Of a DNA stretch of 64,000 nucleotides, positions 157-63,059 are shown piece after piece. The DNA lies in contig DASXPH010000047.1 of NCBI GenBank assembly GCA_036493735.1, positions 1,619 through 65,618 on the forward strand, in the 5' to 3' direction. The stretch comes from Gemmatimonadaceae bacterium (GTDB lineage: Bacteria; Gemmatimonadota; Gemmatimonadetes; Gemmatimonadales; Gemmatimonadaceae). A program made the position numbers and the translations under genes. The notes beneath the pieces are model-generated. The model was not told the DNA's origin. It made no database searches and saw only the letters and a list, made by a program, of their open reading frames with translations. Within the stretch, counting starts at the first letter, position 1. Every line of letters starts with the position of its first letter.

Positions 157-396
157 TGCGGCGGTAAATATCAGCGGGTACCGAGGTCCGCTGTTATGTG
201 CGTCACGAATTGTGAAATTATTTCGTTGCCGAGGCCGCTTCTCGCGAGTGCAAGATCGCTTTCTCGTTAGGCAATGGTGATGCTGATCACGCTTTTCGGC
301 GCGCCAAGGCGACCGGGTTCGCTGGCGGCATCATGTCGATCAGGAAATACGAAAAGACGAACCGGTGTCACCAACGCAACCGGGGAGCGACACGCG

Positions 397-1206
397 CTAT
401 TTCTCGTGGATCACGCCGGGCGGCCCGAGCTCATAGGTCAGCCAGATGTCGTTTCCCCACCTGGTGCGACGCACGCTCTTGACGCGGATCTGCCATGCAT
501 CGCTCACGGAATCGAGCGACGCTCCCCAGACTTCGACGGAATCGCGCGTGGGGAGATCCATCTGGGCGCGCACTGTGTTTGGAATTCCCGGAGCTCTCGC
601 GATCCATTGCACGACGGCGCGCGCCTCCGATCCCCAACGGCCCACCTGAACGAAGAGCACTCGATAGCTGCCGCTCATGTTACCCTCGGTCCAGCTACCA
701 GCGCGAAGCATCTGACTCGGCCCGCGAGCGAATGTGTACTTCTCATTTGGCTCGACGTTGCAGGTAAGACGCGTGCTATCGCGCCAATGCCATTGCAGAC
801 AGTCGAGTGAGTCGCCACGGAAATGACCCCAGACATCAGTGCGCGCCGCACCTTGAACCGGCGCGCCGCCGGGTGCTCCCGCCGATGCTGGCCGCGCACA
901 GAGCCAATATCCGCGCGTTCCGAAATTCTCCATCATCGTGAACCAGAAGATCTTCTTCTCCTCGCTCGTCTCGCCCAGGCGGAAGCGGCCGAGGGAGTCG
1001 GTGACGCCGCGGCCTCCGGCCCGAGAGCAGGTGCGATCCTTGTAGTCGTCGGTCGAGGCGATGAAGTACTGAGCCGCAGGTGTGCCGTCGTCGAATGTGA
1101 GCATGCCGACGACCTTGGGGGTGACCTGCTCCTGATGCTTGACGGGGATCGGGATGCACGCCGCGACGAAGCAGGTCGCAATGAGAAGGCAGATACTTGG
1201 CTTCAC
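397..1206 (-). CDS. Hypothetical lipoprotein
   Basis: 269-aa ORF with an N-terminal signal peptide and lipobox (LLIATCFVAAC). No family recognised. Confidence 0.6.
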   Translation of the reverse strand: MKPSICLLIATCFVAACIPIPVKHQEQVTPKVVGMLTFDDGTPAAQYFIASTDDYKDRTCSRAGGRGVTDSLGRFRLGETSEEKKIFWFTMMENFGTRGYWLCARPASAGAPGGAPVQGAARTDVWGHFRGDSLDCLQWHWRDSTRLTCNVEPNEKYTFARGPSQMLRAGSWTEGNMSGSYRVLFVQVGRWGSEARAVVQWIARAPGIPNTVRAQMDLPTRDSVEVWGASLDSVSDAWQIRVKSVRRTRWGNDIWLTYELGPPGVIHEK

Positions 1207-1268
1207 TCGATGTCCGCGCTCCTCGCGATGACAAGAGGGTTCTTCCGCGAAGCTCCGCGTCAGAACGA

Positions 1269-1682
1269 TCAGTGCTTCGTGACGATCCCGATAACCCCCG
1301 ACGCATTTCCCCGCCCAAACGCATACTGCGCCTCGGCCGCGTTGTAAAAGGTGATCGTCGCGATCGCCGTTGCCGAGATGTCGCGCAGGACGGTTGCGTC
1401 GCCGTAGAACTGGTTGTCGACGTAGACGTTAGGCAGCGCCGTCATCGCGGGCTGGCGCGCGTCGAGTGTCACCGGACCGTGGCTCTGCAAGAACTGCGGT
1501 CGCAGCCGTTTGATGATTTCGTACGCGTTGGGAGCGTGGAGAGAATCGATCTCGGCTTCGGTGATCGACGTGCGTCCCGCGCCGGCCGTGGGGTCGCTGT
1601 GGTGCAGCGCGCACGATGTCGTGGCGAGCAGACATGCAACGAGTGCCGTCACAACTGCTCGACTTCCGCGGCTGCGATCCAT
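1269..1682 (-). CDS. Small lipoprotein resembling a TonB-dependent-receptor plug domain
   Basis: Internal ATG at 1682 gives MDRSRGSRAVVTALVACLLATTSC (lipobox). The C-terminus YVDNQFYGD..ITFYNAAEAQYAFGRGNASGVIGIVTK resembles a plug motif. The upstream part of track ORF 1269..1841 covers the hairpin repeat and is unlikely to be coding. Confidence 0.6.
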   Translation of the reverse strand: MDRSRGSRAVVTALVACLLATTSCALHHSDPTAGAGRTSITEAEIDSLHAPNAYEIIKRLRPQFLQSHGPVTLDARQPAMTALPNVYVDNQFYGDATVLRDISATAIATITFYNAAEAQYAFGRGNASGVIGIVTKH

Positions 1683-1756
1683 ATTCGCTCTCCTCACGAG
1701 TCGATCGACAGTACGACTATGGCTTCCGGGGCGTCTTGGGGAAAGGGGCGTGGTCT

Positions 1757-1826
1757 GTGATCGGTGGACGGTGGTCGGTAAACCTCGACAATGATCACGG
1801 TCCACCGTCCACCGATCACCGTGCCC
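1757..1826 (-). terminator. Heptad-periodic hairpin element downstream of the SusD-like gene
   Basis: Perfect 18-bp inverted repeat: GTGATCGGTGGACGGTGG (1757-1774) and CCACCGTCCACCGATCAC (1802-1819), with a 27-nt loop. The whole element reads as about 10 successive 7-mers (GTGATCG GTGGACG GTGGTCG ... CGTCCAC CGATCAC). Confidence 0.6.
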
Positions 1827-1898
1827 GACCACGCAAAACAACGATGGCCCGAGCTTTCGCCCGGGCCATCGCTGGTTCCAACTACCTAACGAAATCGA

Positions 1899-3311: not shown

Positions 3312-3317
3312 TCTCTG

Positions 3318-6300
3318 TTAGAAGTTGACGTCGGCAGAGAAGAAGAACTGGCGACTCGGCGGGTACGGTGCGAGATCCCACATCCGGCTGAGCGCCGCGT
3401 TACCGAAGTTCGAAACTTCCGGATCGAGGCCGCGATAGTGCGTCCACGTGTAGAGGTTGCGGCCGCTCAGCTCGAGCCGCACGTCCTTCGCGGTGCCGCG
3501 GAAGAGCGTGTTCGTCAGGCGCGAGTTGAGCGAGTAGGACAACGTCACCTCGCGGAGCTTGGCGAAGCTGCCGTGCTCGAGGAATGCTGGCAGGCCCTTG
3601 GCGTACGCGCCCTGGTCAGCGTTGTTCATGGCCGTATCAGCGAGGTTGCCGCCAGGAATGCTGCTCTGGCCGTTCGCTCCCTGCTCGAGATAGGTCTGGC
3701 TCAGATCGGCGACCCAGCCGCCCTTGCGCCAATCGATCAGCGTCGAGAGGCGGAACGGTCCAGCCGTAAAGTCGTTGCCGAAGCCCATCGTCCAATCCGG
3801 GCTCTCGGAGCCGTAGAACTGCTCGATGCGATTGCCTTTCGAGTCGAAGCCGTTGTAGGCGACGACTTCGTCTTGTGCATAGCCAACCTGCACCTTGGTG
3901 CGCGCGGTCCGCTCGCCGAAGCCGCTACCGGTATAGAAAGCCGGCACCGGAAGGGACGTCACCATCCCGCGATTGCGCGCGTAGCTCGTGTGCGACTCCC
4001 ACGTGAAGGCGTGGGTCTGCACGGGGACCAAGCCCAGGCCGATTTCGGCGCCCTTGTTGGTGAGCGAGCCGCCGTTAATGACCTGCGTCGTGAAACCGGT
4101 CGATGGCGCGGGCGACGCCTGGAGCACGAGGCCCGATGTACGCTTGTCGTAGAGCGTGAACTCCGCCTGGCCGCGGCCGTGGAGGAACTGCACGTCGACG
4201 CCGCCTTCCGTCTCATTCGTGACTTCCGGCCGCACGTTCGAGAGACCGATCGTCGTCGACGGACGCAACCCGACGATGCCGTTCTCCGGCACCTGAGTGA
4301 GGAAGGTGTACTTGAAGTTCACCGGCACGCGGTTGCCCGCCTGGCCGTTCGCGATACGGAACTTGATGTTGTCGATGCCCGTCGGCGCGAAGGGCAGGTT
4401 GTACGACGCCGAGAATTTCGGAAAGGCGTAGAAGCGCGCCGTGTCACCGTTGGTGCTCGAGCGCTCGGCGTTCACGGCCGCCGTGAGGAACAACCGGTCG
4501 CTCAAGGTCGAGAGCTCTTCCTGGGCATAGTACGAGAACGTCTTGGAGAGCGATTGCGCCTGGAACTGGCCCGTCTGTACCCCGGTCGTCACGTTGGTGA
4601 TGCCGGGGAACAGGCCGCGGCCCTGATTCAGGAGCTGATCGGACTGCTGGCGCTCCTGACGCAGGCCTAACGAGGTCGTCGCCGTACCGAAGCGCGCGAT
4701 GAGCTTGTGAATCAGCGACGCGTTCAGGTTCGCGTTCACGACGTCGGTGTTGCCGTCGACGACCGTGCCGGGATACGGACTGATGTTGTGGCTCTGCTCG
4801 ATGTAGGTGTTCGGCGGCGAGTACAGATGAGCATGATCGTTGAATGCATCGACGCCGGCGAGGGTCGTGAAGTTCAGCGTCTGCCGCTCGTTGGCGAAGA
4901 CGCTCCAATTTGCCTGGACGTTGCCGATGAGGCGATAGACATCCTCCGGCGTGCGAATGTCCTCCTGGTCCTGCAGCACGTTCGCGCCGCCGGCGATGTA
5001 CGGATTCCTCACGTACTGGCCAGTCAGCGGATCGCGACGGCTCGGATCGAACCAGGTGGGAGTCGCACCGATGATCGTGTACGGCGCGATGTTGTTGTTG
5101 TCGTTGCCCGAGATGCCGCGCTCGGTGAGCGTGTGCATCAGCTCACTCGTGCCGGTGAGGTTCACCGGGCCGACGAGCTGGTTGAGGTTCAGGTGCAGCG
5201 ACTGCTTGCTGTAACCCGAGTTCACCGCCAGGCCGCCGTCGTGGCTAACAGAACCCGAGGCGAAGTACGTCGTGTTTTCATTGCCGCCGCGAAGCGACAG
5301 CGCGTCCTCATACGACAGAGACTTATGACCGTAGAGTTGCTGCTGCTCGTCGACGCAGCCCGCGTAATCGGCCTGGGTGAGGTTGACCTTGTACACCGTC
5401 AGCGCGATCTGCTGGGCGTCGGCGAAGCTGAAGCAGCGCATGTCGTAGCTCTTCGAGATTGCCTGCGTGCCGACGCGCTGCACGAAGTTGAGCGTCGGCT
5501 TGCCAGCCTGACCCTTCTTCGTGGTGATGATGACGACGCCATTGGCGCCTCGCGATCCATAAATGGCACCCGCGGACGGTCCCTTGAGGATCTCGATGCT
5601 CTCGATCTCTTCGGGATTCAGGTCGGCGATACGGTTGACCTGTTGGTCCTGGCTATTCGTGATGCCGCCGCCGGCGCCGGTGATCGAGTTCAAGCCGATG
5701 CCGAAAGCGTCATTGTTGACGATGATGCCATCGACGACGTAGAGAGGCTGGTACGCGCCGTTGATGGTGTTGCTGCCGCGAATCTGGAGCTGCACACCGC
5801 CGCCAGGCGCACCGCCGTTCTGGGTGATGACGGCGCCGGGCACCTTGCCCATGAGCGCGTTGTCGACCGTCGGCTGCGGCACACGGTTGATCTCGCCAGT
5901 GCCGACGACGGTGACCGCGTTCGCGGCGTTCTGGCTCGACACAGAGGTGGCCTGACCAGTCACGACGACTGTCTCGAGCTGGAGGAGATCCTGATCGAGA
6001 CGGATGTCGGCGACGTCGATGCCGGCGCCGAGGAGCTGCGTCGCGCGGCGATAGCCGATACGACGAGCGACCAGCACCTGCTGGCCCGCGGGGACGTTGT
6101 TGATCGCGTAACGCCCGTCTTGGTTGGTGATGGCGCCGAGGGTCGTACCCTGGACGGAGACGGTTGCGTTAGGCACTGGGACGCCGCTCGTCTCGGTAAC
6201 GCGGCCGGTGACCCGTCGCTGCGCCGAGGCGGCGGCGGCGGTGGTCACGCTGACGAGCAACGCGAGGAGACCAGTGACGAGATGGGAGCGATGCCACCGG

Positions 6301-6849: not shown

Positions 6850-9231
6850 TTGAACTGCTCCGCCTTGGCCATCGCTCGCTTCGCCGTTCTCGTACTGTCG
6901 CTCGGGCTGTCCGCTCGCGTGCTCGCTCAGGCGCCGGCTGGCGCCACCGGCACCGTCGCTGGCCGCGTCGTCGCCAGGGCGGACAGCACCGCCTCTGTCG
7001 TTAGGCCCGCCGTCGCAACGCCTGTCTTCGGCGCGACGGTCGTCCTTGTCGGGTCGGTCGGTCGCACAGCGACCAGTGATTCCGCGGGCGGCTTCGTCAT
7101 CGGCGACGTCCCCGCCGGCCCGGTCACTCTCCGCATCCGGCGCCTAGGGTACCGCACTCTCGACCGCCGCGTCGTGGTGCCACCTAACGATACGGTCCGC
7201 GTGGAGATCATCGTCGAATCCGAGGCGCAGCAGCTCAGCCCCGTCCACACGCTGGCGACGCAGACCGAAGTCGAGTCGTTCACGGCCAAGCCGAACGTCG
7301 CGACGATCGTCATGCCGGCGCGCCTTCTCGCCGGCGTGCCGAGTGTCGGCGAGCCGGATGTCATTCGCATCGTGCAGCTCCTGCCGGGGGTCATGGCGCG
7401 CAACGACTTCAACACGGGGCTCAACGTCCGCGGCGGCTCGTCCGATCAAAATCTCGTGCTGCTCGACGGGATTCCGATCTACAATCCATTTCACATGGGC
7501 GGGCTGTTCAGCACGTTCATGGACGCGACCGTCGGCGGCATCGAGCTGATGACGGGTGCCTTTCCCGCGCGCTACGACGGACGGCTCTCGAGCGTACTCG
7601 ACGTTCGCTCAGCCGACGAGACACGTCCCGGCGTTCACGCCAGCGCCGATCTGTCCATCCTCGCGACGACGGCGCAGGTCGGCGGAGCGTTAGGCAACAG
7701 TCGTGGGAGCTGGAGCCTGGCCGGCCGGCGAACCTACGCCGATGCGCTGGCCAAGACGTTCAGCACCGATCAGTTCCCGTATCACTTCAGCGACTTCCAC
7801 GGGCATGCGGACTATCTGCTACCTCACGACTGGCGATTCGGCGTCACCGGCTACACTGGCAACGACGCGCTCGATCTGAATCTCGCGACGGCGATCGGAG
7901 ACTCGACGGTATCGACGGCCCGCCAGGGTACCTGGCAATACGGGTGGGGCAACACTGTGCTCGGCGCGTCGCTCGGCCGGGACTTCACGGCGCCGTCCGC
8001 TCTGGGCTGGCTGCTCGGCGGCACGACGACATTCGAGCAGCGCGTCTCGACCTCCCGCTTCGGCGCGACGCTCGACGTCGCGCAGGGCGCGCAGGTGCAG
8101 CGGAGCAACGTCCGCGACGTGCGGGCGACGGGATCGCTCACCGCGCACGGCGCGACGAACGATCGCTCGATCGGATGGGAGGTGTCCGGAACACACGTGC
8201 GCTATGGGACGGACTCGCCGCAGATGGGCACCACCGATTTCGACATCATCCAGGATCCGGTGTCGTACGCGGCGTGGGTTGGCGATCTCTGGCGGCCGAC
8301 GTCGCGCTGGCTCGTGGAGGGCGGGCTTCGCGGTGAGCGCCTAACGGGTGGAGCTGGCGCGCGTGACTGGGCGGCGCTCTCGCCCCGCCTCTCGCTCAAG
8401 TACTTCGTCACGCCGGAGGTCGCGTTGAGCGCGGCGGCGGGGCGCGTCACGCAGACGATGCACTCGATGGCCGGTGACGGGCCGCTGCGCTTCTTCGAGG
8501 TCTGGCTGTCGAGCGATCAGTACATTCCCGTCGAGACGGCGTGGCACTACGTACTCGGCGCCGAGCGTCGCGTCGAGAGCTCGTCGATCCGCATCGAGGG
8601 GTATGTCAAGAATTACGATCGGGTGCTCGACGCGAACCTGAGCGACGATCCGACGATTCGGGGCGACGAGTTCATCGTCGCGACGGGCCGCGCCTACGGC
8701 GTCGACGTGCTGGCGCGGTGGACACCTCGGTCGGGACCGACAGGATGGCTGTCGTACTCGTACGGCGTGGCGATGCACGAGCAGGATGGAGTGCGCTGGG
8801 CGCCGGGGAACGACCGTCGCCACGATCTGAATCTCGTGGCGACGTGGCAGCTCGCGCGGTATCGACTGGGGGCGCGCTTTGGCTATGCGACGGGAACGCC
8901 GTACACGCCGATCGTCGGCCAGATGCTCCGCCGACTGTATGATCCGTCTACGGGCCAGTGGGATGCGGGCATCACGACGCTCAACCTCGAGCCGTTAGGC
9001 GGCGCGCGGAACTCGGCGCGCTTCCCGGCGACGCAGCGGCTCGATGTCAACGTCTCACGCGACATGCATTATCGCGGCTCGACGATCTCGCCGTATCTGA
9101 GCGTCGTCAACGCGTACAACGCGCACAACATTTTCGTGTACGTGTACGACTACTCGACGGATCGCCCGACGCGTCGTGCCTACACACAGTTTCCGATTCT
9201 GCCGAGCCTGGGGGTGCGGGTTGCGTTCTAG
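6850..9231 (+). CDS. TonB-dependent receptor with an N-terminal carboxypeptidase-regulatory-like domain
   Basis: 793 aa with a TTG start and a signal peptide. It has a CarboxypepD_reg-like segment (GTVAGRVV..GGFVIGDVPAGPVTLRIRRLGY) and a plug motif (VQLLPGVMARNDFNTGLNVRGGSSDQNLVLLDGIPIYNPFH). The C-terminus is ..LGVRVAF. Confidence 0.85.
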   Translation: MNCSALAIARFAVLVLSLGLSARVLAQAPAGATGTVAGRVVARADSTASVVRPAVATPVFGATVVLVGSVGRTATSDSAGGFVIGDVPAGPVTLRIRRLGYRTLDRRVVVPPNDTVRVEIIVESEAQQLSPVHTLATQTEVESFTAKPNVATIVMPARLLAGVPSVGEPDVIRIVQLLPGVMARNDFNTGLNVRGGSSDQNLVLLDGIPIYNPFHMGGLFSTFMDATVGGIELMTGAFPARYDGRLSSVLDVRSADETRPGVHASADLSILATTAQVGGALGNSRGSWSLAGRRTYADALAKTFSTDQFPYHFSDFHGHADYLLPHDWRFGVTGYTGNDALDLNLATAIGDSTVSTARQGTWQYGWGNTVLGASLGRDFTAPSALGWLLGGTTTFEQRVSTSRFGATLDVAQGAQVQRSNVRDVRATGSLTAHGATNDRSIGWEVSGTHVRYGTDSPQMGTTDFDIIQDPVSYAAWVGDLWRPTSRWLVEGGLRGERLTGGAGARDWAALSPRLSLKYFVTPEVALSAAAGRVTQTMHSMAGDGPLRFFEVWLSSDQYIPVETAWHYVLGAERRVESSSIRIEGYVKNYDRVLDANLSDDPTIRGDEFIVATGRAYGVDVLARWTPRSGPTGWLSYSYGVAMHEQDGVRWAPGNDRRHDLNLVATWQLARYRLGARFGYATGTPYTPIVGQMLRRLYDPSTGQWDAGITTLNLEPLGGARNSARFPATQRLDVNVSRDMHYRGSTISPYLSVVNAYNAHNIFVYVYDYSTDRPTRRAYTQFPILPSLGVRVAF

Positions 9232-9232: not shown

Positions 9233-10396
9233 GTGGCGATAACAGGCGCTGTCCTCTTGTCGATGACAATCGGCTGTGAGTTGGATAAGACGCCGATTCC
9301 ACCGAAGACGCCGCAGATCGTGCTGGAGGGGGTGTTGAACGCGGGCGCGCCATCGCAGGTCGTTCTGCTCGAGCGCGCCCGCAGTGGGCTCGTGTACGTG
9401 ATCTCGCCGCCTTACGATACTGAAGATCCGGTGACGAGCGATGCGGGGATCCCCGAGACCGGGGCGACGGTGACACTGATCACGCCGAGCGGGCAGTCGA
9501 TCCAAGCAATCGAAGACAGCAAAGTCAACGATGGGAAGGGAGAGGGTGTTTATCGAATTCCAATCACCGGCAATTCGTTGGTTCGCGATCAAACATATCA
9601 CCTGCTGGTGCAGACGCTGAGTGGCGAGACGTTGAGTGCCGTCACGTCCGTGCCCGATGGAATCGCGTCGACCAGCGTGACATACAACCCGAGCTTCGAT
9701 CGAACGAGGGACACCTTTTCCGCCACATGGCCCGCATCCGCGACGGCGAAGAGTTATCTCGTACGAATCGACACACCGGACGGGCCGCGGCAGTTTTTCA
9801 CGCAAGGGACCTCGATCAGTCTCCCGGGCATGCTGCGCAATGTTGATGTCGCGGAACTACCGCATGTGTTCTTCCCGGGTTTCCAACAGAACGTGACCGT
9901 GTCCGCCGTGGACTCCAACTACTACGACTGGTTCCGGACGCATAACGACGTGATCTCCGGCGAAGGCTTGATAAATCGAATCACCGGTGGCGTCGGCGTG
10001 TTCGGCTCGCTCGTGCTGCTGGAATACGACTACCTTCAGGTGACCGCCCCGAGGACACAGCCCACCGAGGGGACGTTCAATTTTACCGGCTCGTCGTTCG
10101 ACGCACTTGCCGTGCGCTATCTGAGCTTCGACATCTACATCGAATCGCCGGCGGCACGGAGCGGGCAGTCGGACGCCTTGAGTGGTCGATATACGCCGAA
10201 GCCGCGCCTCGATTACCACGGATGCCCTGTGTGCGGCTTTCTGGGGACGGCCAGCGGCAACCGGATCGAGCTCGCGTTGCTCGATGGCTGGTCGGCAAGG
10301 GATACGGTCGAAGTCTTCGACGGCCAGCTACAGGGCGATACCCTGACCGGCTACTTCCGCTTTGGTGGTGGCCCGTTCAAATTCGTTAGGCAATAG
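9233..10396 (+). CDS. DUF4249-like lipoprotein (usual partner of this receptor class)
   Basis: GTG at 9233, 1 nt after the receptor stop, gives VAITGAVLLSMTIGC (lipobox). Track ORF 9176..10396 is in the same frame but would overlap the receptor by 56 nt. Confidence 0.7.
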   Translation: MAITGAVLLSMTIGCELDKTPIPPKTPQIVLEGVLNAGAPSQVVLLERARSGLVYVISPPYDTEDPVTSDAGIPETGATVTLITPSGQSIQAIEDSKVNDGKGEGVYRIPITGNSLVRDQTYHLLVQTLSGETLSAVTSVPDGIASTSVTYNPSFDRTRDTFSATWPASATAKSYLVRIDTPDGPRQFFTQGTSISLPGMLRNVDVAELPHVFFPGFQQNVTVSAVDSNYYDWFRTHNDVISGEGLINRITGGVGVFGSLVLLEYDYLQVTAPRTQPTEGTFNFTGSSFDALAVRYLSFDIYIESPAARSGQSDALSGRYTPKPRLDYHGCPVCGFLGTASGNRIELALLDGWSARDTVEVFDGQLQGDTLTGYFRFGGGPFKFVRQ

Positions 10397-12735: not shown

Positions 12736-13701
12736 CTAAGGGTCGGTCACGCCGAAGCGTACCTGCCGCGTTTCGCGCTCCATCCCGGTGCGCCGCGTTA
12801 GGCAGTCGTACAATTCCGGCCGTCTCGCGCGCAGCCAGCGGCGCCCAGAGGACATCGGCAGCAGCGACGCGTCGAGATCGGCGACGACCATGTCGTCGCC
12901 CGGCTTGCTCGTCTCGGCGATCACCTCGCCATAGGGATCGAGGATCATCGCATTCCCGGTGCGGATCTCGTCGTCGTCCGGACCGACGCCGTTGCTGAAG
13001 ATGAGAAAGAGGCCGTTGTCGTGCGCGCGACTCGGCAGCCAGCGCATGAGCCACGCGCGCCCCTTCGGCCCACAGAGCTCGGCGCGGATCGCGTCGGGGT
13101 CCTCGTGGCGTCGCGCCCAGATGGCGGGATCGACGGGCTTCATTGCCTTCGGGCTCACCGAGTTGCATCCGCCCGTCTGATGCGGCGCGAGCAGGACCTC
13201 GGCGCCGGCGAGCGCCGTCGCCCGCGCGTTCTCGACGATGTTGTTGTCGTAGCAGGTGAGCACGCCGACGCGGCAGCCGTGGGGCGTGTCGAAGACGGTG
13301 TACTGTTCGCCGTTGGACAGGTGTTCACTCACGAACTCGTGCAGCTTGCGGTGGACGGCCCACTCGCCGTTAGGCATGGCGACGACATAGCCGTTGTACA
13401 TCCGCCCGTCGGCGGCGCGTTCGATGAGCCCGGCGCCGATGGTGATGCTCCGCTCGCGTGCGAGGCGAAGCAAATCCTGAGTCAATGGGCCGTCCGGGAC
13501 CGGCTCGGCGAGCGCCTCGACCTCGTCGCGCGAGAGCTTGCGGACATGCCAGTAGCCCGTCAGGCACATCTCCGGAAAAACGACGATCTCCGCGCCGGCG
13601 TGGGCGGCGTCATTCACATAGTGCCTAACGCGGCCGAGGTTGTACGGCTTGTCGCCGGGCGCATGCTGGAACTGGACACTCGCGACGCGGATGTTCCGCA
13701 T
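12736..13701 (-). CDS. Carbon-nitrogen hydrolase (nitrilase superfamily)
   Basis: ATG at 13701 gives MRNIRVASVQFQHAPGDKPYNL..IVVFPEMCLTGY, with catalytic Glu and a later TCYD Cys motif. Its start lies 1 nt from the kinase stop. The upstream extension of the track ORF is Arg-rich junk. Confidence 0.85.
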   Translation of the reverse strand: MRNIRVASVQFQHAPGDKPYNLGRVRHYVNDAAHAGAEIVVFPEMCLTGYWHVRKLSRDEVEALAEPVPDGPLTQDLLRLARERSITIGAGLIERAADGRMYNGYVVAMPNGEWAVHRKLHEFVSEHLSNGEQYTVFDTPHGCRVGVLTCYDNNIVENARATALAGAEVLLAPHQTGGCNSVSPKAMKPVDPAIWARRHEDPDAIRAELCGPKGRAWLMRWLPSRAHDNGLFLIFSNGVGPDDDEIRTGNAMILDPYGEVIAETSKPGDDMVVADLDASLLPMSSGRRWLRARRPELYDCLTRRTGMERETRQVRFGVTDP

Positions 13702-14920: not shown

Positions 14921-14965
14921 AGGGCTACTAGTTGACCTCTTTCGGGTGCTCCGTCAAGTCGGGGC

Positions 14966-16316: not shown

Positions 16317-16502
16317 CGCACAGGTCGTTAGGCGGGCAAAAAGTCACGGCGGCATCGTCGCGCTGGAAAGCGGGCCCGCGGCTACTTACCCGCTCCACAC
16401 AATCGACGACTCGGCCATGACCTCCGAAACCACCCCGTCCGGCGCTCTGTGGGCCATGTCCACCCAGCGGCAGGATATGGGTCACCGATTCGCCCAGTGA
16501 GC

Positions 16503-49542: not shown

Positions 49543-49807
49543 TAGGCAAGAGCGGCGCCGTTCGACGGATCCAGATGAGTGCCGTGCCTAACGTCACAGA
49601 TGACGCGCCTACATTGCGCATCACGAGGCGCAGGGGCGTGTTGTCCGAGGCGTTCCCGGTCGAAAGTGCCCGCGCACGCGCCGTCACTCGTGCATGGTGA
49701 CGCAAGCCACGGTGAGACTGTTTTTATTTCTTAACTTCTCTGGGCACGCCGCAAGTTGCACGACGTTCTGGCGAAATACGGATTCACTCACCGACTGTTC
49801 GAGGTTT

Positions 49808-52261: not shown

Positions 52262-53908
52262 ATGAAAAGCACCGTACTGGTTTGTCTCTTCGTCCTCGGC
52301 GCCTGCAAGGGCGACATCACCGATAGCCAATCGAATGAGCCGAGCACGACGAACCCTCAGACGGTATCGGTGCTCACCCAGCATAACGACAATACGCGCG
52401 CCGGCTGGAACGCCAGCGAGACCGCGCTGACCACGAGCAGTGTGAATGTCCAGCACTTCGGCAAACTGTTCACGCTGTCGGTCGACGACCAGGTGTACGC
52501 GCAGCCATTGGTGGCCGGAGGGATCACCATTCGCGGCGGGCTACACAACGTGGTGTACGCCGCCACCGTCAACAATTCGATCTACGCGTTCGACGGGGAC
52601 AACGGCAAACTGTACTGGCAGCGGAATTTCACGGCGCCTGGCATGCGTCCGACGCGAAATACCGATCTCGCCGGAGCGTGCGGCGGTACGTACACGGATT
52701 TCATCGGCAACATCGGAATCGTCGGCACGCCGGTGATCGATGGCGCGAAACACACCATCTACTTCGTCACGCGCAGCATCAGCGGCAGCGACAACGCATT
52801 CGTACAGCACCTGCACGCGGTAGACATCGTCACTGGAAGTGAAGTCGCCGGCAGCCCGGTCGTGATTACTGCGACCGCGAACGGCAGCGGTGACGGAAGC
52901 GTCAACAACCTCATCACCTTCGACGCCGAGCGTCAGAACCAGCGGCAGGGGCTGACCCTTCTCAACGGCGTCGTGTACGTGACGTTCTCATCGTATTGCG
53001 ATTGGGGTCCATATCACGGCTGGATCCTCGGCTACGACGCCAAGACGCTCCAGCAGCAGGTCGTCTACAACGCAACGCCCGACGGATCTGCGGGCGGCAT
53101 GTGGGAGAGCGGCGCTGGCATGGCCGCCGATGCTCAAGGCAATCTGTACATAGTAGTCGGCAATGGCACTGTCGGGACCACGAGCGATCCAACGAGTTCG
53201 AGGAATCGCGGAGAGAGCGCTCTCAAGCTGACCCGCAGCGGCGCGACCCTTCAGGTGGCCAGCTACTTCACTCCGAGCAATTACCAACAGCTCAACGACG
53301 GCGACCTGGATTATGGCGGCCCCGGTGCGTTTCTGATACCCAATTCGAGCTATTACTTCACGGGCGCCAAGGATGGCACCCTCTACCTGCTGAACAAGGA
53401 CGCGATGGGTGGCTATCAGTCGTCAGGCAACGCCGTTCAGCAAACCGTATCGTTAGGCTCCTCCGTCAACCTGCATTGCCAGCCTGCGTACTACAAGGGC
53501 GCAACGAAGGAGTTCGTCTACGTCTGGTCCGAGAACGATGCGTTGCGCGCGATCCCGTTCGATCGCGGCAGCAGCATGTTGGACGAGGCTGGTCAGGTCA
53601 CGATGGCTTCCGGCGGGCCCACGGGGCTCAGCGGTGCGCTGCTGTCGGTTTCATCGAACGGAAGCGTGGACGGCACCGGCATCGTCTGGGCATCGCACTC
53701 CTATGGTGGCGATGCGGGGCACGCCGTCGCCGATGGCATCCTTCGCGCCTTCGATGCCAGTGACGTCACGAAGGAGATCTGGAACAATCGGCAGACGGCG
53801 CCGGACGCGGCGGGAAAGTTCGCGAAGTTCGCCCCGCCGACCATCGCCAACGGCCACGTCTACCTGCCGACGTTCTCCAATCAGATCGCGGTCTACGGAC
53901 TGCGCTGA
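52262..53908 (+). CDS. PQQ-like beta-propeller repeat lipoprotein
   Basis: ATG at 52262 (MKSTVLVCLFVLGAC). It has repeated ..VYAQPLV..VVYAATVNNSIYAFDGDNGKLYWQ.. blades. Confidence 0.7.
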   Translation: MKSTVLVCLFVLGACKGDITDSQSNEPSTTNPQTVSVLTQHNDNTRAGWNASETALTTSSVNVQHFGKLFTLSVDDQVYAQPLVAGGITIRGGLHNVVYAATVNNSIYAFDGDNGKLYWQRNFTAPGMRPTRNTDLAGACGGTYTDFIGNIGIVGTPVIDGAKHTIYFVTRSISGSDNAFVQHLHAVDIVTGSEVAGSPVVITATANGSGDGSVNNLITFDAERQNQRQGLTLLNGVVYVTFSSYCDWGPYHGWILGYDAKTLQQQVVYNATPDGSAGGMWESGAGMAADAQGNLYIVVGNGTVGTTSDPTSSRNRGESALKLTRSGATLQVASYFTPSNYQQLNDGDLDYGGPGAFLIPNSSYYFTGAKDGTLYLLNKDAMGGYQSSGNAVQQTVSLGSSVNLHCQPAYYKGATKEFVYVWSENDALRAIPFDRGSSMLDEAGQVTMASGGPTGLSGALLSVSSNGSVDGTGIVWASHSYGGDAGHAVADGILRAFDASDVTKEIWNNRQTAPDAAGKFAKFAPPTIANGHVYLPTFSNQIAVYGLR

Positions 53909-55530: not shown

Positions 55531-55533
55531 AAC

Positions 55534-57001: not shown

Positions 57002-59128
57002 CTAGCGATCCAGCGGACTGGAACGCAGCTGAAAGTGGAGGACCTTGCTCGTCGTTCCCTTGCCGGTCTCCATGTGGAACGGAGCGCGCGTACTCACCGT
57101 CGCCCAGAGACCGCGTCCCTTCCATCCGGCATTCACGTCATCGATCCTGCCGTCCATCCACTTCGTGTAGAAGCCAGTGGGGTAGGGCACGCGCAGGACC
57201 ACCCATTTGCCATCTTTCAACGCAAGCAAGCCCTCGGACGCGTTACCGGTGTTGATTGGCGTGTTCTTCCCGAGTCCCAGCGCGTTCTGCTGGTCGACCC
57301 AGGTGTAGTAGCTCGCCTCGGCGCTGCCTGACGAGGTGACGTTCTTCAGCTGCGGCAGCGGCTCCGGATAGAGCGTCCAGCCTTCCGGGCATTGCTGGCC
57401 AGTCGCTTTGGGTCCGTTGAGCGGACCCTTGCACTTGCGTCGATCGAAGCTCGCCATGTGCCCGCTCGCCAGCGCCACCCATGCGACGCCATTGCGGTCG
57501 ATGTCCATGCCGCGCGGCGAGTAGCCGCGCTTCGACGGATCGGGGCTGTTGTACGGCGGTTCGTAATATTCTACTAAACTCGTCTCGGGCGGATGATTGC
57601 CCGGCACGAGACGCAGAATGCCGCCGGGGAATCCAAGCGCCGAACCCCAGATCGATCCGTCCGGCGCCGGCGCCACCGCGTAGAAGCCCGCATTGATCCG
57701 ATGATCCTTGGTGGGATCGATTGGCTGGTTAGGCTCGGTGTAGTCGCCGCGCTTGCCATCGCCATTCGTATCGAGGATCAACGCCGTCCACCCCTGTGCC
57801 CTTTCTTCGTCGCCAGTCTCGTCGAAGAGCTTCGTGTCGAACCAGCCGACTACTGGGCCGCCTCCACTCGTCCACAGCGTGCGATGCGAATCCTCGGCGA
57901 ACATCAGGTGATGCGTGCCGAAGCAGGTGCTGATGTGCGTGAGCTTCTTCGTCTTCGGATCGTACATCGCGAGCTGTCGGCCGGAGCGATTGAGCGGAAA
58001 GAGTCGCGCCGATGGATGCCCAGATCCCTCCTTGCAGAACGCCGGGTCATCTGGCGGTCGCACCGTCGAGGTGATCCACACGCGACCCTTCTCGTCCATC
58101 ATCGGATTGTGGACGTTGTTCTTACTCGTCCAGACCGTCTCGCTGCCCCAGTAGACCGACGGCGCGCCATTGTTGGTCCCTGCCGCGGGTTGAGTAGCGG
58201 GATCGCGAACGGTGAGCGGCACACGCGAGATCGAGTTGTGAACGGGATCGAGGACCGGGAGATAGTCGGAGCTGAGCTCCGTTGCACCGTAGACCAAACC
58301 GTTCGCGTTGAGCGTCGGATTGCGCCGGTCGGTGGACACGAGGTCGTGCAGGTACGTCTTGGCATCGGCCCAGTCCCACTCGGTGATCACGACGTTCCGT
58401 TCGATGCCCTGTGGGCGATGAGGCGCGGTCGCTGGCACTTCGCCGGCGGCAATGCGATCGGTCCAATCTGCAAAAAGCTGCAGCGCGCGCGTGTGACCGA
58501 GGTTGTCGATCGTGTTGAGCATCTGCGTACCAGCCTGGCCAGATTGCACGCGGCGCTCCCACGCGGCGACACCAGAGCCGAGCTTTCGGTATTCCTCCGG
58601 AACGTCGCGCGTGCCGCGCGTGCCGAGCTGGTGACAGGCCGTACAGCCGCCGGATTTGATAGTGCGAATCCAATCTTCCTGCGAGTTCATGTTTGGTGAA
58701 ATGCCATTCCCGCTCAGCCCCGTGCCAGGGAATTCGTTCTTCTCGGGCACGCGGAGCATCGACAACCAGTAGCCCGCTGGATAAATCGCTGCCGCGGCAC
58801 GCGCGTCAGACGCCGGCGTGGCTTTCAGGTCGAGCGTCTTGCCGACTGTCGATCGAGATTTTGGCGAATCGACAAGACCGTAGCCGCGCACCCACACGTC
58901 GTAGGTCGCGGTCGGCAAGTCGGGGATGAGATAGCGCCCCCGGTCGTCGGTAACGACGATGCGCACGAATCTCGTCGGGAGGTCGCTGGTTTCGGCGATC
59001 ACCCAGACACCCGCCTCGGGACCGCTTCGGCCGGTGACGGTGCCAGTTATGTCGTTAGGACCGACCAGTCCCGCTTCCGAAGTAAGGATGAGAGTAGCGG
59101 TTACAGCGAGTAAGTGCAGCGTACGCAT
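57002..59128 (-). CDS. Secreted carboxypeptidase-regulatory-like domain protein carrying one CXXCH haem-c motif
   Basis: 708 aa with a signal peptide. It has TGTVTGRSGPEAGVWV..DDRGRYLIPDLPTATYDVWV and GGCTACHQLG. Confidence 0.7.
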   Translation of the reverse strand: MRTLHLLAVTATLILTSEAGLVGPNDITGTVTGRSGPEAGVWVIAETSDLPTRFVRIVVTDDRGRYLIPDLPTATYDVWVRGYGLVDSPKSRSTVGKTLDLKATPASDARAAAAIYPAGYWLSMLRVPEKNEFPGTGLSGNGISPNMNSQEDWIRTIKSGGCTACHQLGTRGTRDVPEEYRKLGSGVAAWERRVQSGQAGTQMLNTIDNLGHTRALQLFADWTDRIAAGEVPATAPHRPQGIERNVVITEWDWADAKTYLHDLVSTDRRNPTLNANGLVYGATELSSDYLPVLDPVHNSISRVPLTVRDPATQPAAGTNNGAPSVYWGSETVWTSKNNVHNPMMDEKGRVWITSTVRPPDDPAFCKEGSGHPSARLFPLNRSGRQLAMYDPKTKKLTHISTCFGTHHLMFAEDSHRTLWTSGGGPVVGWFDTKLFDETGDEERAQGWTALILDTNGDGKRGDYTEPNQPIDPTKDHRINAGFYAVAPAPDGSIWGSALGFPGGILRLVPGNHPPETSLVEYYEPPYNSPDPSKRGYSPRGMDIDRNGVAWVALASGHMASFDRRKCKGPLNGPKATGQQCPEGWTLYPEPLPQLKNVTSSGSAEASYYTWVDQQNALGLGKNTPINTGNASEGLLALKDGKWVVLRVPYPTGFYTKWMDGRIDDVNAGWKGRGLWATVSTRAPFHMETGKGTTSKVLHFQLRSSPLDR

Positions 59129-59591: not shown

Positions 59592-59605
59592 TGGTGATAA
59601 GATGC

Positions 59606-60184: not shown

Positions 60185-61896
60185 TGGCCCACCTTGGTGA
60201 AACGAAGATGCCTAACGCGGCCCGCCTCGATGAGATATCCGGTGATGCGGCCCTTCGCGTCACGCTGGACGTCGACGACGGTACCGCCACCACCGCCACG
60301 CGTGAAACCATCCTTGTACGTCGGCTCGAGCACGCCAAGGCGGCGATCGTTCGCGTAAACGACGAGTTGACCCTTCTCCACCTTCCACACTTGCGTCGTC
60401 TCCACCTCGTCGCTCCGATAGCTCCCCGCATATTCGGCGAGCTGCGTCGGCGTGAGCGCGACGGTATCGGCACGCGTGAACGTCACCTCATCCCCCGTAG
60501 TGTGAACGATCATGCGTATTGGAGCGGCAGAAGGACCTTCGAAGCGCAGCTCGGTCCCGGATCCCTCTCGGAAGCGGCCGTCGCCGAGCGGGATGATGCG
60601 CGTGCGCTGGCCACCGGCGGCGAAGAGCGTGTCGCCGACGAGTAGCAGCCGTCGGACCTCCCCACGCTCGACGTTGCGCCACACGCCCACGAGGGGGCGA
60701 AGGGCTGTGGCGGGTACGTCGAAGCGCGGCGCGCCTTCGAGGGCGACGGTCCACATCGTCGCGCTGTCGGGTTGCATGCGGTCGGCGAGGTAGATACCTG
60801 CGACTTTACGAGCGAGGGAGTCCGGGCCCGATGTCGTCAGATTGCAGAACGTCGCGACGGCGAAGCGCTGATCAGGAAACCGCAAAAAGTGTCCGCGATA
60901 GCCCGCCCAGCTCCCGCCGTGCGACACGACGCGCAGACCGCGCAGCGTCCCGACGTTGAGGCCGATCGCGTATGCCTCGTTAGGACCGGATCGAGCCGGC
61001 AAGCCGTCGTTCAGCTTCGTTGGGGTCGTCATGGTCTCGATGATGTCGCGGCCGCCGACCGTCGCCTCGTCGTAATTGTTCAGCCAGCGGCCGAAATCCT
61101 CGACGGAAGTGTGCACCGCCCCCGCGCCCATGATCGCGCCGTCGTACGACGAACGTGCGACACGGAATCCCGCTCCCGCCCCCTGCCGTGGCGCATACCC
61201 CTCGGCGCCGTTCGGGATGATTGTCGTCGCGTCGGCGAGAATGCGCGTGTCGTGCATGCCTAACGGCTGAAAGATGCGCTCGTCGACGAACTGCGCGAGC
61301 GTCTTGCCGGTCAGTCGGTACACGATCTGCGCGGCGAGAATCCAGCCGGAATTCGTGTACAGATATCGCTCACCCGGCGTGTAGTTAGGCTCGGTCGAGT
61401 GGGTGATGACGCGGAGCGCGTCGATCGAGTCGCCGGCGAAGGTGCGGCCTGTCTGCGCCATCATGACGTAGATGTCGCGCAGCCCGCTGGTCTGACTCAG
61501 CGCGCGGCGCAGCGTGATCTTGTCCGCGTACGGCGGCAGCTCGGGGATGTATTTCCGGATCGGATCGTCGAACGAGAGCTTGCCCTCCTTCTGGAGCATG
61601 AGCATCGACATCGCGGTGAACTGCTTGGATATCGAGCCGACGTCGAGCACCGATCGCGGGGACATCGCGACCCCATGCTCGAGGCTCGCCATGCCGTAGC
61701 CGCGGGCATAGAGAATCTTGCCGTCCTGATAGACGCCGAGGGCGCAGCCTGGCGAGTCGGTGCGATCGAAGTGCTGGAAGACGCTGTCGGCGCGGACCGC
61801 GCGCGCGTCGCGGACGCCAATGATCTGCTGGGCGTGAGTGGAGTTAGGCAGAAGCAGGACGACGGCGACGATCTCTAGTGTGCGGCGAAAAGACAT
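60181..61896 (-). CDS. Beta-lactamase-fold serine hydrolase (class C/PBP-like)
   Basis: 571 aa with a signal peptide, an SxxK motif (GSISKQFTA) and a YTNSGW motif. Confidence 0.85.
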   Translation of the reverse strand: MSFRRTLEIVAVVLLLPNSTHAQQIIGVRDARAVRADSVFQHFDRTDSPGCALGVYQDGKILYARGYGMASLEHGVAMSPRSVLDVGSISKQFTAMSMLMLQKEGKLSFDDPIRKYIPELPPYADKITLRRALSQTSGLRDIYVMMAQTGRTFAGDSIDALRVITHSTEPNYTPGERYLYTNSGWILAAQIVYRLTGKTLAQFVDERIFQPLGMHDTRILADATTIIPNGAEGYAPRQGAGAGFRVARSSYDGAIMGAGAVHTSVEDFGRWLNNYDEATVGGRDIIETMTTPTKLNDGLPARSGPNEAYAIGLNVGTLRGLRVVSHGGSWAGYRGHFLRFPDQRFAVATFCNLTTSGPDSLARKVAGIYLADRMQPDSATMWTVALEGAPRFDVPATALRPLVGVWRNVERGEVRRLLLVGDTLFAAGGQRTRIIPLGDGRFREGSGTELRFEGPSAAPIRMIVHTTGDEVTFTRADTVALTPTQLAEYAGSYRSDEVETTQVWKVEKGQLVVYANDRRLGVLEPTYKDGFTRGGGGGTVVDVQRDAKGRITGYLIEAGRVRHLRFTKVGQ

Positions 61897-61977
61897 GGCG
61901 ACGTGGAAGGGAGAGAGACGGGGAGTTGGCTAATGTCCAACGTCCAAGATCATCGTTGACAGTCGTCGACGGCGCTA

Positions 61978-61996
61978 TACTTTGCGATACAAAGTA
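61978..61996. promoter_or_regulatory. 7-bp inverted repeat with a 5-nt spacer in a divergent promoter
   Basis: TACTTTG CGATA CAAAGTA, located 19 nt upstream of the GTG start at 62015. Confidence 0.3.
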
Positions 61997-62014
61997 CAAC
62001 GCCTGGAGGCGACT

Positions 62015-62536
62015 GTGGGGCGCTGGACACGAATTGTTCGTGGGATGATCGGGACGGGATTGACGTTTGCTGTCGGGGTCGGCGGGGTGGCGACCATTCT
62101 GGGCACGATTGCCACGCTGATCGGCGGCGGCTCGTTTCGCGAAGTCTTCAGGATCGCGGGAAGACTGTCCGTCGCCGCGTTCCTGCTCGGCATCGGCTTC
62201 TCCGCCATTCTCGCGATCACGTCGCGGAGTCGTCGACTCGTCAATCTCTCGATCCCCCGCTTCGCGTCGCTCGGCGCCGGCGCGGGACTGATCTACTTCG
62301 GGTTGATATCGATCAACGGAGTCGGCAAGTGGTCGCTCGGGACCGCGATCCTGAACTTCCTTCTGCTCACCGGACTGGGCGCTGGATCCGCCGCGGCGAC
62401 TCTGCTGCTCGCGCGGAGGGGTCGGAAGGAGCTGGAGTCCGAGGAGCGCTCGTCTTTGGGCCCAGGCGATTCAGGGTTCGAGACGCGGGCCTCAGCTGAG
62501 ACGAGCAGTGTATTTCCATTGGACGACCGACGGTAA
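62015..62536 (+). CDS. Hypothetical membrane protein
   Basis: GTG at 62015, 5 nt after GGAGG, in frame with track ORF 61982..62536. It has about five hydrophobic helices. Confidence 0.5.
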   Translation: MGRWTRIVRGMIGTGLTFAVGVGGVATILGTIATLIGGGSFREVFRIAGRLSVAAFLLGIGFSAILAITSRSRRLVNLSIPRFASLGAGAGLIYFGLISINGVGKWSLGTAILNFLLLTGLGAGSAAATLLLARRGRKELESEERSSLGPGDSGFETRASAETSSVFPLDDRR

Positions 62537-62843
62537 TCGGCGTCTCTCTGACCATCGACGGCTCAGCGTTAGGCATGCATCACCTGTTGGGAACGCGGAC
62601 ACGGCGCGGAAACGGCGCGGGTCTGCTCCGGGTGCATTTGCATCTCCGATGCGCAGCGAGCCGGATTCTGTGGCAACAGCACCCCAAGAAATTCCCGGCT
62701 CGTGGCAACAGCGGGTGCACGGCTACACGGAAAAAAGCGGCGCTCTTTCCGTGCAGTTGCGGGCCGTTTCCGCGTTCAAAGCAGTTGATGTTTGGACAAC
62801 GAGGAATTCTGCAGGCCAAGATTGCTTTAACTGCAACGCCCCG

Positions 62844-63059
62844 TTAGGCGACGGCTTCTGGCTCGGGCGCACCGCGACCCCGGAACTCCCACTTCGACCG
62901 CGCCACGGCAAGTGCCGCCGCAAGCACGGCGATCGCGAGCATGTTCCACGCAACAGCGTCTTTGGTCAGGGCCAGGACGAGCGCGAGAAAGCCGCCGATT
63001 GCACCGGCGACGGCTCCGATGAGGGCCAGGGCGGCGCTGATTTTCAGGACACGAAACAT
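62844..63059 (-). CDS. Small hypothetical membrane protein
   Basis: 71 aa with two hydrophobic helices. Its TAA stop lies inside a CGTTAGGC copy. Confidence 0.35.
   Translation of the reverse strand: MFRVLKISAALALIGAVAGAIGGFLALVLALTKDAVAWNMLAIAVLAAALAVARSKWEFRGRGAPEPEAVA

Follow-up and report, generated by a model that had tools for sequence, protein, structure and literature searches.

A hyper-abundant, non-palindromic octamer in Gemmatimonadaceae, Chthoniobacterales and phage contigs

The 64-kb window considered here (the whole stretch of DNA that was analysed, from contig DASXPH010000047.1 of a Gemmatimonadaceae bacterium) carries ordinary chromosomal genes, among them SusC/RagA, glycerol kinase with aquaporin, a lipid-synthesis cluster, peptidases and three ADOP permeases with PadR, and by the gene calls made for this analysis 88% of it is coding. 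Homologs of the ADOP permease at 31982-34405 assign the window to the Gemmatimonadaceae. Its G+C content is 64.6%, where the initial annotation, made from the sequence alone, had given ~67%. Dispersed through genes and spacers is an octamer, CGTTAGGC (GCCTAACG on the opposite strand), that differs from its own reverse complement and is therefore non-palindromic. An automated search found 42 copies, 20 on the plus strand and 22 on the minus strand, which is the number reported in the initial annotation, and every coordinate listed there was matched. The same holds for its 50 copies of the core CGTTAGG and for the eight of these that have another eighth base (at 1885, 7183, 12611, 20381, 23661, 31100, 59053, and 60978). 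Rfam and tRNA scans of the window gave no match, and a tandem-repeat scan returned nothing relevant to the word.

The word is about 40 times as frequent as chance would provide. Shuffles of the window that preserve dinucleotides yield 1.15 copies on average and at most 5, and Markov models of order 1-3 expect 1.0-1.5. The hyper-abundance claimed at the outset is borne out against these models; the accompanying crude estimate had been 2-3 octamers by chance. Among all window 8-mers, CGTTAGGC ranks first by observed/expected. The nested counts (TTAGG 58, GTTAGG 55, CGTTAGG 50, CGTTAGGC 42) identify the AT-containing centre as the source of the excess, nearly all TTAGG in the window falling inside the full word. 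Per kb there are 0.66 copies in the window and 0.45-0.83 in relatives, with an observed/expected ratio of 30-48, and 160 kb of word-bearing Gemmatimonadaceae DNA contain 99 perfect copies versus 2.1 expected. The word had been described as unfamiliar, and our full-text literature searches found it only in primers and unrelated uses, with no paper describing it as a bacterial motif. The 42 copies are given below with their strand and setting (ORF, open reading frame).

265..272, plus strand: intergenic, 1 nt ahead of the ATG at 274
1427..1434, plus strand: antisense, ORF 1269-1652 (minus), L-P-N-V
4665..4672, minus strand: sense, SusC/RagA gene 3318-6356 (minus), TCG TTA GGC
6167..6174, plus strand: antisense, SusC/RagA gene 3318-6356 (minus), V-P-N-A
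6999..7006, plus strand: sense, gene 6865-9231 (plus), V-V-R-P
7688..7695, plus strand: sense, GCG TTA GGC
8339..8346, minus strand: antisense, R-L-T
8993..9000, plus strand: sense, CCG TTA GGC
10384..10391, plus strand: sense, gene 9263-10396 (plus), F-V-R-Q
12796..12803, plus strand: antisense, CN-hydrolase gene 12736-13701 (minus), C-L-T
13368..13375, plus strand: antisense, M-P-N-G
13623..13630, minus strand: sense, R-V-R-H
14500..14507, minus strand: sense, protein-kinase gene 13703-14920 (minus), F-V-R-R
16326..16333, plus strand: intergenic, 10 nt upstream of the start of gene 15864-16316 (minus)
17178..17185, minus strand: sense, ADOP permease 16503-19199 (minus), CCG TTA GGC
18522..18529, minus strand: sense, ADOP permease 16503-19199 (minus), CCG TTA GGC
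19469..19476, minus strand: sense, ORF 19383-19727 (minus), L-V-R-Q
21902..21909, plus strand: sense, FGGY kinase 20599-22083 (plus); retained in L081
22741..22748, minus strand: sense, MMPL gene 21992-24268 (minus); missing at the orthologous site of L081 and L082
24640..24647, plus strand: antisense, gene 24334-25470 (minus); window-specific
25450..25457, plus strand: antisense; window-specific
26483..26490, plus strand: antisense, DUF3419 gene 25458-26639 (minus); window-specific
28877..28884, minus strand: sense, ORF 28815-29102 (minus); retained in L081 and L082
30447..30454, plus strand: antisense, KAS III gene 30199-31167 (minus); CGTTAGGT in orthologs
32241..32248, minus strand: antisense, ADOP permease 31982-34405 (plus); retained only in the 96%-identical strain L088
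33370..33377, minus strand: antisense, T-P-N-E; retained in L088, L082, L090, and L084, ACCTAACG in L081
33718..33725, minus strand: antisense, W-P-N-E; retained in 6/6 aligned orthologs and L084, CGTCAGGC in L086
34188..34195, plus strand: sense, GCG TTA GGC; retained in 6/6 aligned orthologs despite the rare TTA
38091..38098, minus strand: sense, ADOP permease 36552-39242 (minus); GCCCAACG in orthologs
38769..38776, minus strand: sense; ACCTAACG in L081 and L088
40355..40362, minus strand: antisense, M28 peptidase 39903-41534 (plus)
43304..43311, minus strand: sense, M55 peptidase 42692-43795 (minus), ACG TTA GGC
46308..46315, minus strand: sense, FAD oxygenase-like gene 45711-47240 (minus)
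46848..46855, minus strand: sense, CCG TTA GGC
49146..49153, plus strand: sense, ORF 48982-49542 (plus), I-V-R-H
49586..49593, minus strand: intergenic
51289..51296, minus strand: sense, gene 50302-52053 (minus)
53451..53458, plus strand: sense, gene 52160-53908 (plus), TCG TTA GGC
60210..60217, minus strand: sense, beta-lactamase-like gene 60181-61896 (minus)
61258..61265, minus strand: sense, CCG TTA GGC
62567..62574, plus strand: intergenic
62842..62849, plus strand: overlaps the TAA stop (62846-62844, minus strand) of small ORF 62844-63059 (minus)

One-off variants in the window are the following.

1885..1892 (minus), 7183 (minus), 12611 (minus), 20381 (plus), and 31100 (minus): CGTTAGGT, the commonest near-cognate
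59053..59060 (plus) and 60978 (plus): CGTTAGGA
23661, minus strand: CGTTAGGG
45687..45694 (plus), 61383, and 61842: AGTTAGGC, GTTAGGC with another first base
57727: GGTTAGGC, GTTAGGC with another first base; in these last four copies GTTAGGC itself lies at 45688, 61384, 61843, and 57728

When the 42 copies are aligned with 20 bases on each side, the word carries no information into its flanks except at the two adjoining positions, where A (22/42) and G (12/42) prevail at +1 and A is scarce (3/42) at -1. This agrees with the earlier description of unconserved flanks with a weak preference for A after the word, and also with the view that the copies are not part of a longer dispersed repeat, the flank information being close to zero beyond +/-1. 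Our gene calls place 24 copies in sense, 13 in antisense and 5 in intergenic DNA; the earlier count of sense against antisense had been ~28:16. All four stop-free frames are occupied, and no copy falls in either of the two that would yield TAG or TAA, as had been pointed out, along with the fact that the copy at 62842 provides the TAA of a small minus-strand ORF. To compare frames we counted those peptide contexts that could encode the word through synonymous choice. Occupancy was 15/80 for sense [SPTA]-L-G, 9/37 for sense x-V-R-[LPHQR], 5/28 for antisense [SCRG]-L-T, and 8/19 for antisense x-P-N-[VADEG], which amounts to 37/164 contexts or 23% overall with a range by frame of 18-42%. The 24:13 ratio of sense to antisense arises because usable peptide contexts differ in number between the strands, and an RNA-level function, for which the sense bias might have spoken, was rejected since the four frames are similarly occupied and the bias tracks those contexts. 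The copies are uniform along gene length, encode many different peptides in the four frames, and lie in some cases in spacers, consistent with the initial annotation, which had considered their placement independent of frame, strand and coding. The cost in rare codons that it had described is also seen: of the 1,900 leucine codons 33 are TTA, and the word contains 15 of them. The word is a DNA-level signal, and the force that maintains it acts on DNA rather than on protein or RNA.

A separate observation concerns the base triplet that follows the word. ATG stands directly after it at 34188, 13368, 43304, 49146, 61258, and 62567 (CGTTAGGCATG), where ~0.4 such cases are expected, and at 265 one extra base separates the two. 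In sense frame-1 copies, word plus ATG reads L-G-M, and there is no association with start codons.

Along the window the spacing departs from chance only at short range. A fall in density after 34 kb had been suggested, but the counts before and after that point (28 vs 14 copies) do not differ significantly (p = 0.09), and the motif-free stretches singled out earlier are within chance, a gap at least as large as the largest one (6.8 kb) having P = 0.34. The idea that these stretches are islands was likewise dropped, as their sizes fit chance and the genes within them are ordinary. The smallest gap, on the other hand, is 255 bp, which under uniform placement has P = 0.0007. The GC skew of the window is mostly of one sign while the word splits 20:22 between the strands.

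The word is shared with close relatives, and in the orthologous contigs its presence follows the identity of the ADOP permease (31982-34405) to that of the window, as listed here.

L081: ADOP ortholog 85% (protein), 12 copies in 22.4 kb
L082: ADOP ortholog 83% (protein), 8 copies in 18 kb
L084: ADOP ortholog 70% (protein), 14 copies in 17 kb
L085 (70% G+C): ADOP ortholog 66% (protein), 10 copies in 22.4 kb
L086: ADOP ortholog 64% (protein), 3 copies in 22.4 kb
L087: ADOP ortholog 56% (protein), 0 copies in 22.4 kb

The word is thus present where ADOP identity is >=66%, and also at L031, a locus from another Gemmatimonadaceae metagenome-assembled genome (MAG), where 15.8 kb contain 13 copies; some ten further Gemmatimonadota loci contain zero or one. 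A metagenome scan for further orthologs gave only 4 loci, the matches listed from a genome scan were mostly distant paralogs, and the word recurs in independent assemblies of several studies. Site turnover can be followed in the block from 21.9 to 39.7 kb (17.8 kb), which shares synteny and 77% nucleotide identity with L081 and L082. Here 4/13 window copies are retained in L081 and 5/12 in L082 (31-42%), compared with 14-15% of random 8-mers (P = 0.10 and 0.026, respectively). Three copies are common to the window, L081, and L082 (6.9% expected), five copies in the block occur only in the relatives, and the lost sites differ by 1-3 substitutions at the orthologous positions. Density is therefore kept while individual sites turn over by point mutation, and such constancy with turnover suggests a continuing genome-wide force rather than a position-specific function.

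Two further features emerged from these comparisons. L086 has only three CGTTAGGC but 11 dispersed CGTCAGGC (~2 expected; for example at 11722), one of which is at the position orthologous to the conserved window copy at 33718. CGTCAGGC in L086 is either a sister dialect or a decay product after the lineage lost the drive, the T-to-C change being synonymous and codon-favoured in 2/4 frames. At 35295-35888 the window also contains a gene of 197 amino acids with no Pfam match and no word copy, which is missing in the 96%-identical L088 and in L081 and present in L082, a strain-level presence/absence polymorphism.

Specificity was profiled by counting the 24 one-off variants in the 160 kb of word-bearing Gemmatimonadaceae DNA. 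Only CGTTAGGT (20 observed, 0.9 expected) and CGTTATGC (12 observed, 2.0 expected) are clearly raised, and changes at positions 2, 3, and 7 (in GTTAGG) are at expectation and not depleted. A C/T difference at position 8 is the commonest one at orthologous sites, even between 96%-identical strains. The same word is equally dense in a second phylum, at four loci of the Chthoniobacterales (Verrucomicrobiota).

L058: Chthoniobacterales, 11 copies in 13.2 kb
L021: Chthoniobacterales, 4 copies in 4.2 kb
L092 (part of a 1.54-Mb contig): Chthoniobacterales, 11 copies in 22 kb
L093: Chthoniobacterales, 18 copies in 22.4 kb

In these loci T precedes the word in 40/44 copies and the raised variant is TGTTAGGC (12 observed, 0.5 expected). 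Across lineages the core GTTAGG is invariant and the edges of the word depend on the lineage. A protein of L058 has close homologs (78-86% identical) in several MAGs that are independent of one another and carry the name Chthoniobacterales; these MAGs, the 1.54-Mb contig, and the different dialect contradict misbinning or a recent transfer from Gemmatimonadaceae. The other Verrucomicrobiota loci examined and ~60 Acidobacteriota loci are without the word. At L063, an unrelated Pyrinomonadaceae locus, there are three copies, all encoded by the conserved L-A-L-G-I-G-A of ADOP paralogs. Sharp specificity combined with dialects is what a protein-read site looks like, and we infer that a putative reader protein recognizes the word; the patchy distribution across phyla suggests that this reader is transferable.

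The notion that each soil genome might have an abundant word of its own was rejected, since the abundant 8-mers of Acidobacteriota proved to be local tandem heptamer or 14-mer arrays beside ADOP/PadR genes. Such 7-mer/14-mer arrays lie in spacers next to ADOP permease/PadR genes at several Acidobacteriota and Gemmatimonadota loci, with units that vary by lineage, for example (ACTCAGC)n, (AGTCGTC)n, and (ACTGCGA)n (L031 6217-6524; L063 12-26, 2497-2565, 5000-5061, and 7617-7671; L032 6135-6205; L040 6507-6642 and 9053-9237; L016 2434-2448, 9080-9094, and 15781-15795). The window has one as well, (GGCGCGT)7 at 14963-15011, and these arrays may be operator arrays for PadR-type regulators. In L092, L093, and L058, six to nine genes for ADOP duplicated permeases follow one another head to tail on the same strand, a paralog expansion that is unusually large in Chthoniobacterales for a family named after Acidobacteria.

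The word also occurs in phages. A viral scan of 2.9 million contigs, in which two co-oriented copies 300-330 bp apart were required, returned 99 loci, and half of these have just the two required copies, which is the chance level. About ten, however, have 5-24 dispersed copies in random flanks (mean flank identity 0.24-0.33), and scans for inverted pairs added L217, L221, and L232, making ~13 viral contigs with 0.5-2 copies per kb. The inverted-pair scans gave fewer word-rich contigs than expected, though not decisively so. The ten contigs of the first scan are as follows.

L122: viral, 24 copies in 11.8 kb, strands 6:18
L159: viral, 15 copies in 7.1 kb, virion structural proteins
L127: viral, 8 copies in 4.6 kb, virion structural proteins
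L101: viral, 16 copies in 13.9 kb, 13 with the Chthoniobacterales T; large terminase and Mu-type portal
L179: viral, 13 copies in 13.75 kb, tape measure, sheath, and baseplate proteins
L174: viral, 10 copies in 12 kb, strands 8:2
L169: viral, 8 copies in 7.8 kb, strands 7:1
L158, L190, and L109: viral, also in the word-rich group

L101, which has the Chthoniobacterales dialect, has relatives among the Mu/B3-type phages; word-rich viral contigs also encode proteins of P22 type and SU10 type. Judged by what they encode, these contigs are real phage genomes, with cultured relatives that are all distant (<=53% identical). In word density they match or surpass the hosts even when the two triggering copies are left out. 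Where the word is skewed in a phage, the skew follows the direction of the genes in some cases and opposes it in others. A search of the phage fragments for a shared driver gene showed only structural and helix-turn-helix proteins and no methylase.

Several viral contigs show related patterns that we regard as observations in their own right. In L173 (3000-8500), L162 (4900-8500), and L105 (2400-4300), all of 54-63% G+C, GTTAGG lies inside conserved elements of ~20 bp that read ttagcttggNNcGTTAGGcg on one strand and gttgagcgNNNgGTTAGGcg on the other. In L173 the elements form alternating pairs ~58 bp apart, in L173 and L162 the pairs recur every 300-700 bp, and the elements of all three contigs resemble promoter or operator arrays of a phage early region. 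L153 (5.9 kb, 55% G+C) has 37 dispersed GTTAGG (6.3 per kb, mostly TGTTAGG) on both strands and in random flanks, and may represent a further dialect at extreme density. The tandem heptamer array (CGTTAGG)n at L161 12141-12253 is a separate phenomenon, as are the 70-108-bp tandem repeats with GCCGTTAGGCGCG in the low-G+C (23-32%) viral contigs L114 (5560-6500) and L160 (5300-5820 and 10430-10920).

We tentatively propose that CGTTAGGC is a self or kin tag that biases the survival or the incorporation of DNA, most likely after it has entered the cell, and we consider this possible rather than probable. In this proposal a sequence-specific DNA-handling machine would recognize the word, and DNA that bears it would survive or be incorporated more often. 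Ordinary point mutation would make new copies at sites one or two changes away, and their preferential fixation would lead to a steady density (~0.5-0.8 per kb) with sites that turn over. The machine could be a translocating helicase-nuclease or a defence enzyme that spares word-bearing ends or passes them to recombination, by analogy with Chi and RecBCD/AddAB. A linear fragment would need a correctly facing word near both of its ends, which would give rise to strand symmetry in the chromosome, and selection would favour the tag in phages that face this enzyme. We prefer a step after entry because it would explain both the phages and, by way of two-ended fragments, the strand symmetry.

Several findings weigh against this proposal. 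The 64-kb window shows no gene for a methylase, a nuclease, competence, or recombination. Strand skew is absent in the hosts (20:22 in the window; heterogeneity chi-square of 2.3 over 7 loci), and all Chi words characterised so far share the orientation of replication. Across eight host loci, 8 gaps of <250 bp were counted versus 19.3 expected (P = 0.001), and avoidance of close copies is a property of Haemophilus uptake sequences and not of Chi. A magnitude of 30-48 is otherwise known only from uptake sequences and HIP1; the observed/expected ratio of Chi in E. coli is ~2.3 (PMC3784561). The skew in phages has p = 0.018 uncorrected and ~0.07 without the two required words, the signal being carried by L122, and the first p value was inflated because the search demanded two co-oriented words. 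The hosts of the phages, moreover, are assigned only from dialect and G+C.

Much of the evidence would equally suit an uptake sequence in the manner of the DNA uptake sequences (DUS) of Neisseriaceae and the uptake signal sequences (USS) of Pasteurellaceae, where a competence receptor binds the word, conspecific DNA is taken up, and molecular drive follows. A density of 0.45-0.8 per kb and a ratio of 30-48 are within the DUS/USS range, the strands are used equally, coding and non-coding DNA are occupied proportionally and in any stop-free frame, lineages have dialects, sites turn over with density kept, the copies are spaced more evenly than at random, and among relatives the word is patchily distributed, as in Neisseriaceae and Pasteurellaceae. 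What makes us doubt this explanation, while still granting it a real chance, is that ~13 phage contigs, including a Mu/B3-type one, have the word at host density or above, whereas DUS are reduced in islands and the H. influenzae Rd Mu-like prophage is largely devoid of USS. In addition, the same word is found in two phyla while known uptake words are family-specific; there are no inverted terminator pairs, no AT-rich flanks, and no competence gene within the window; and natural competence is not known in the Gemmatimonadaceae and Chthoniobacterales groups. The phages would be easier to understand under a ratchet as proposed for HIP1 (PMC5861425), in which a methyltransferase or nickase reads the word and nearby repair favours the word-bearing strand, the word itself being useless, since such a process would act on all resident DNA and so on phages of several morphotypes. 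Restriction-modification and methylase genes move between phyla, which would account for patchiness and dialects, and the dominant variant is a C-to-T change at an edge (position 8 in Gemmatimonadaceae, position 1, a CpG, in Chthoniobacterales) that recurs at orthologous sites and fits a methylated, deamination-prone C. On the other hand, near-cognates are not depleted, contrary to correction of the very-short-patch type, close-pair avoidance is not predicted, an asymmetric site is a poor signal for strand discrimination, neither the window nor the phage fragments showed a methylase or nuclease gene, and a ratchet of this kind is not known to have been demonstrated; on balance we think it rather doubtful, yet a serious rival alongside the uptake sequence.

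The remaining explanations are harder to reconcile with the data. Selection for dense and regular binding sites of an abundant nucleoid-associated or chromosome-organising protein would predict the over-even spacing with a smallest window gap of 255 bp and the irrelevance of orientation in hosts, and GTTAGG in L173, L162, and L105 is part of longer regular elements that resemble protein-binding arrays. We nevertheless find it unlikely, because nucleoid proteins rarely need an exact 8-mer, several phage types would have no reason to match or exceed host density, individual sites turn over fast, and no candidate protein is known. Still less probable is a classical polar motif, that is, a replication-oriented Chi or one of the FtsK-orienting polar sequences (KOPS) or architecture-imparting sequences (AIMS) that guide FtsK: the word is an asymmetric 8-mer and L122 is strongly skewed (6:18), yet the window shows 20:22 with a mostly one-signed GC skew, no host locus is skewed, and neither KOPS nor Chi comes near this density, so that the data contradict a polar motif at this scale. 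To a fragment of a dispersed repeat (repetitive extragenic palindrome, REP, or miniature inverted-repeat transposable element, MITE), a conserved peptide motif, or an artefact of composition or assembly we assign practically no weight. L063, where the copies come from L-A-L-G-I-G-A, and the viral matches in tandem repeats (L114, L160, L161) show that such origins do occur, but in the window and its relatives the flanks carry no information, the copies encode many peptides in four frames and lie in spacers too, Markov models to order 3 expect ~1, and independent assemblies share the word, and the flank and frame analyses refute this group of explanations.

In the fullest form of the proposal, which we regard as conceivable if speculative, a horizontally mobile recognition module would have imposed the same 8-bp self/kin tag on thousands of sites in two unrelated soil phyla, and their phages would carry it to mimic self. 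Such a tag would constitute a new class, as large and symmetric in its effect as uptake sequences and mimicked by phages as Chi is. Alternatively, CGTTAGGC could be the first uptake-type signal outside Proteobacteria, joining two phyla in one exchange community. We found no earlier report of the word, and its sharing across phyla and its enrichment in phages are features not reported for hyper-abundant words. Only a handful of words that are hyper-abundant genome-wide are known, namely DUS, USS, HIP1, and Chi, and each of them either opened research on self versus foreign DNA or stays a puzzle. CGTTAGGC adds a case from two abundant, poorly cultured soil phyla, in which magnitude and symmetry like those of uptake sequences, sharing across phyla, and enrichment in phages come together as in no known class. 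As an exact and countable word it is a marker with which contigs and phages can be assigned to these lineages, it could help to detect islands in these genomes, and through phylogenetic profiling it offers a handle for a search for the reader protein. Gene flow in soil communities would be shaped by the tag if uptake, recombination, or defence is under its control.

No known class fits CGTTAGGC fully. The analogies first drawn for it, to uptake sequences, HIP1, and Chi, have been narrowed with none of them settled, and membership of the HIP1 type is excluded as the word is non-palindromic. KOPS/AIMS (GGGNAGGG, FtsK-orienting) are also asymmetric octamers scattered through genes, but KOPS are >80% co-oriented with replication and much sparser, and CGTTAGGC is unskewed. 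Type III sites (EcoP15I CAGCAG in T7) and mycobacteriophage stoperators are asymmetric and in some phages largely co-oriented. The co-orientation in L122, L174, and L169 is similar; that of the word in phages is weak overall, however, and unlike CGTTAGGC neither Type III sites nor stoperators are hyper-abundant in the host chromosome. HIP1 (GCGATCGC, cyanobacteria) is likewise an octamer that occupies genes and spacers at a codon cost and is over-represented 15-300-fold. HIP1 sites are somewhat more conserved than control words, and the function of HIP1 is obscure after decades. It differs in being a palindrome with known methylation sites, and CGTTAGGC is asymmetric and belongs to another phylum; a HIP1 periodicity has been reported at tens of kb, beyond the reach of a 64-kb window.

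Chi (GCTGGTGG in E. coli; the RecBCD/AddAB hotspot) is a 5-8-nt word that is read by a DNA-processing enzyme and marks self, the corresponding enzyme for CGTTAGGC being putative. Of the proposed likeness to Chi, the asymmetry holds, and the enrichment in the host and in phage contigs of deduced hosts looks alike; Chi itself is over-represented in the host and, to an equal or greater extent, in some of its phages, with a host-like density in E. coli lambdoid phages without recombinases of their own (PMC3784561). The strand skew of classical Chi and KOPS is absent, CGTTAGGC not being co-oriented with replication, its close pairs are avoided, and its density is about three times that of Chi in E. 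coli. The likeness to uptake sequences has a similar balance: density, symmetry, and dialects agree, and the high phage density runs contrary to known uptake sequences. Genomic islands are drastically poorer in DUS (PMC7371117), unlike the phage contigs in CGTTAGGC, and the hosts of these contigs are deduced; unlike DUS and USS the word is common to two phyla and has neither terminator-forming inverted pairs nor AT-rich flanks around it. In other respects the resemblance to DUS (Neisseriaceae, GCCGTCTGAA and its dialects) and USS (Pasteurellaceae, AAGTGCGGT) is extensive. Like CGTTAGGC, they are short and non-palindromic, occur about once per kb (every ~400-1100 bp for DUS; PMC7371117), exceed expectation by tens to hundreds of times on both strands and in any workable gene frame, form dialects around an invariant core, turn over at steady density with over-even spacing, and are confined to particular clades.

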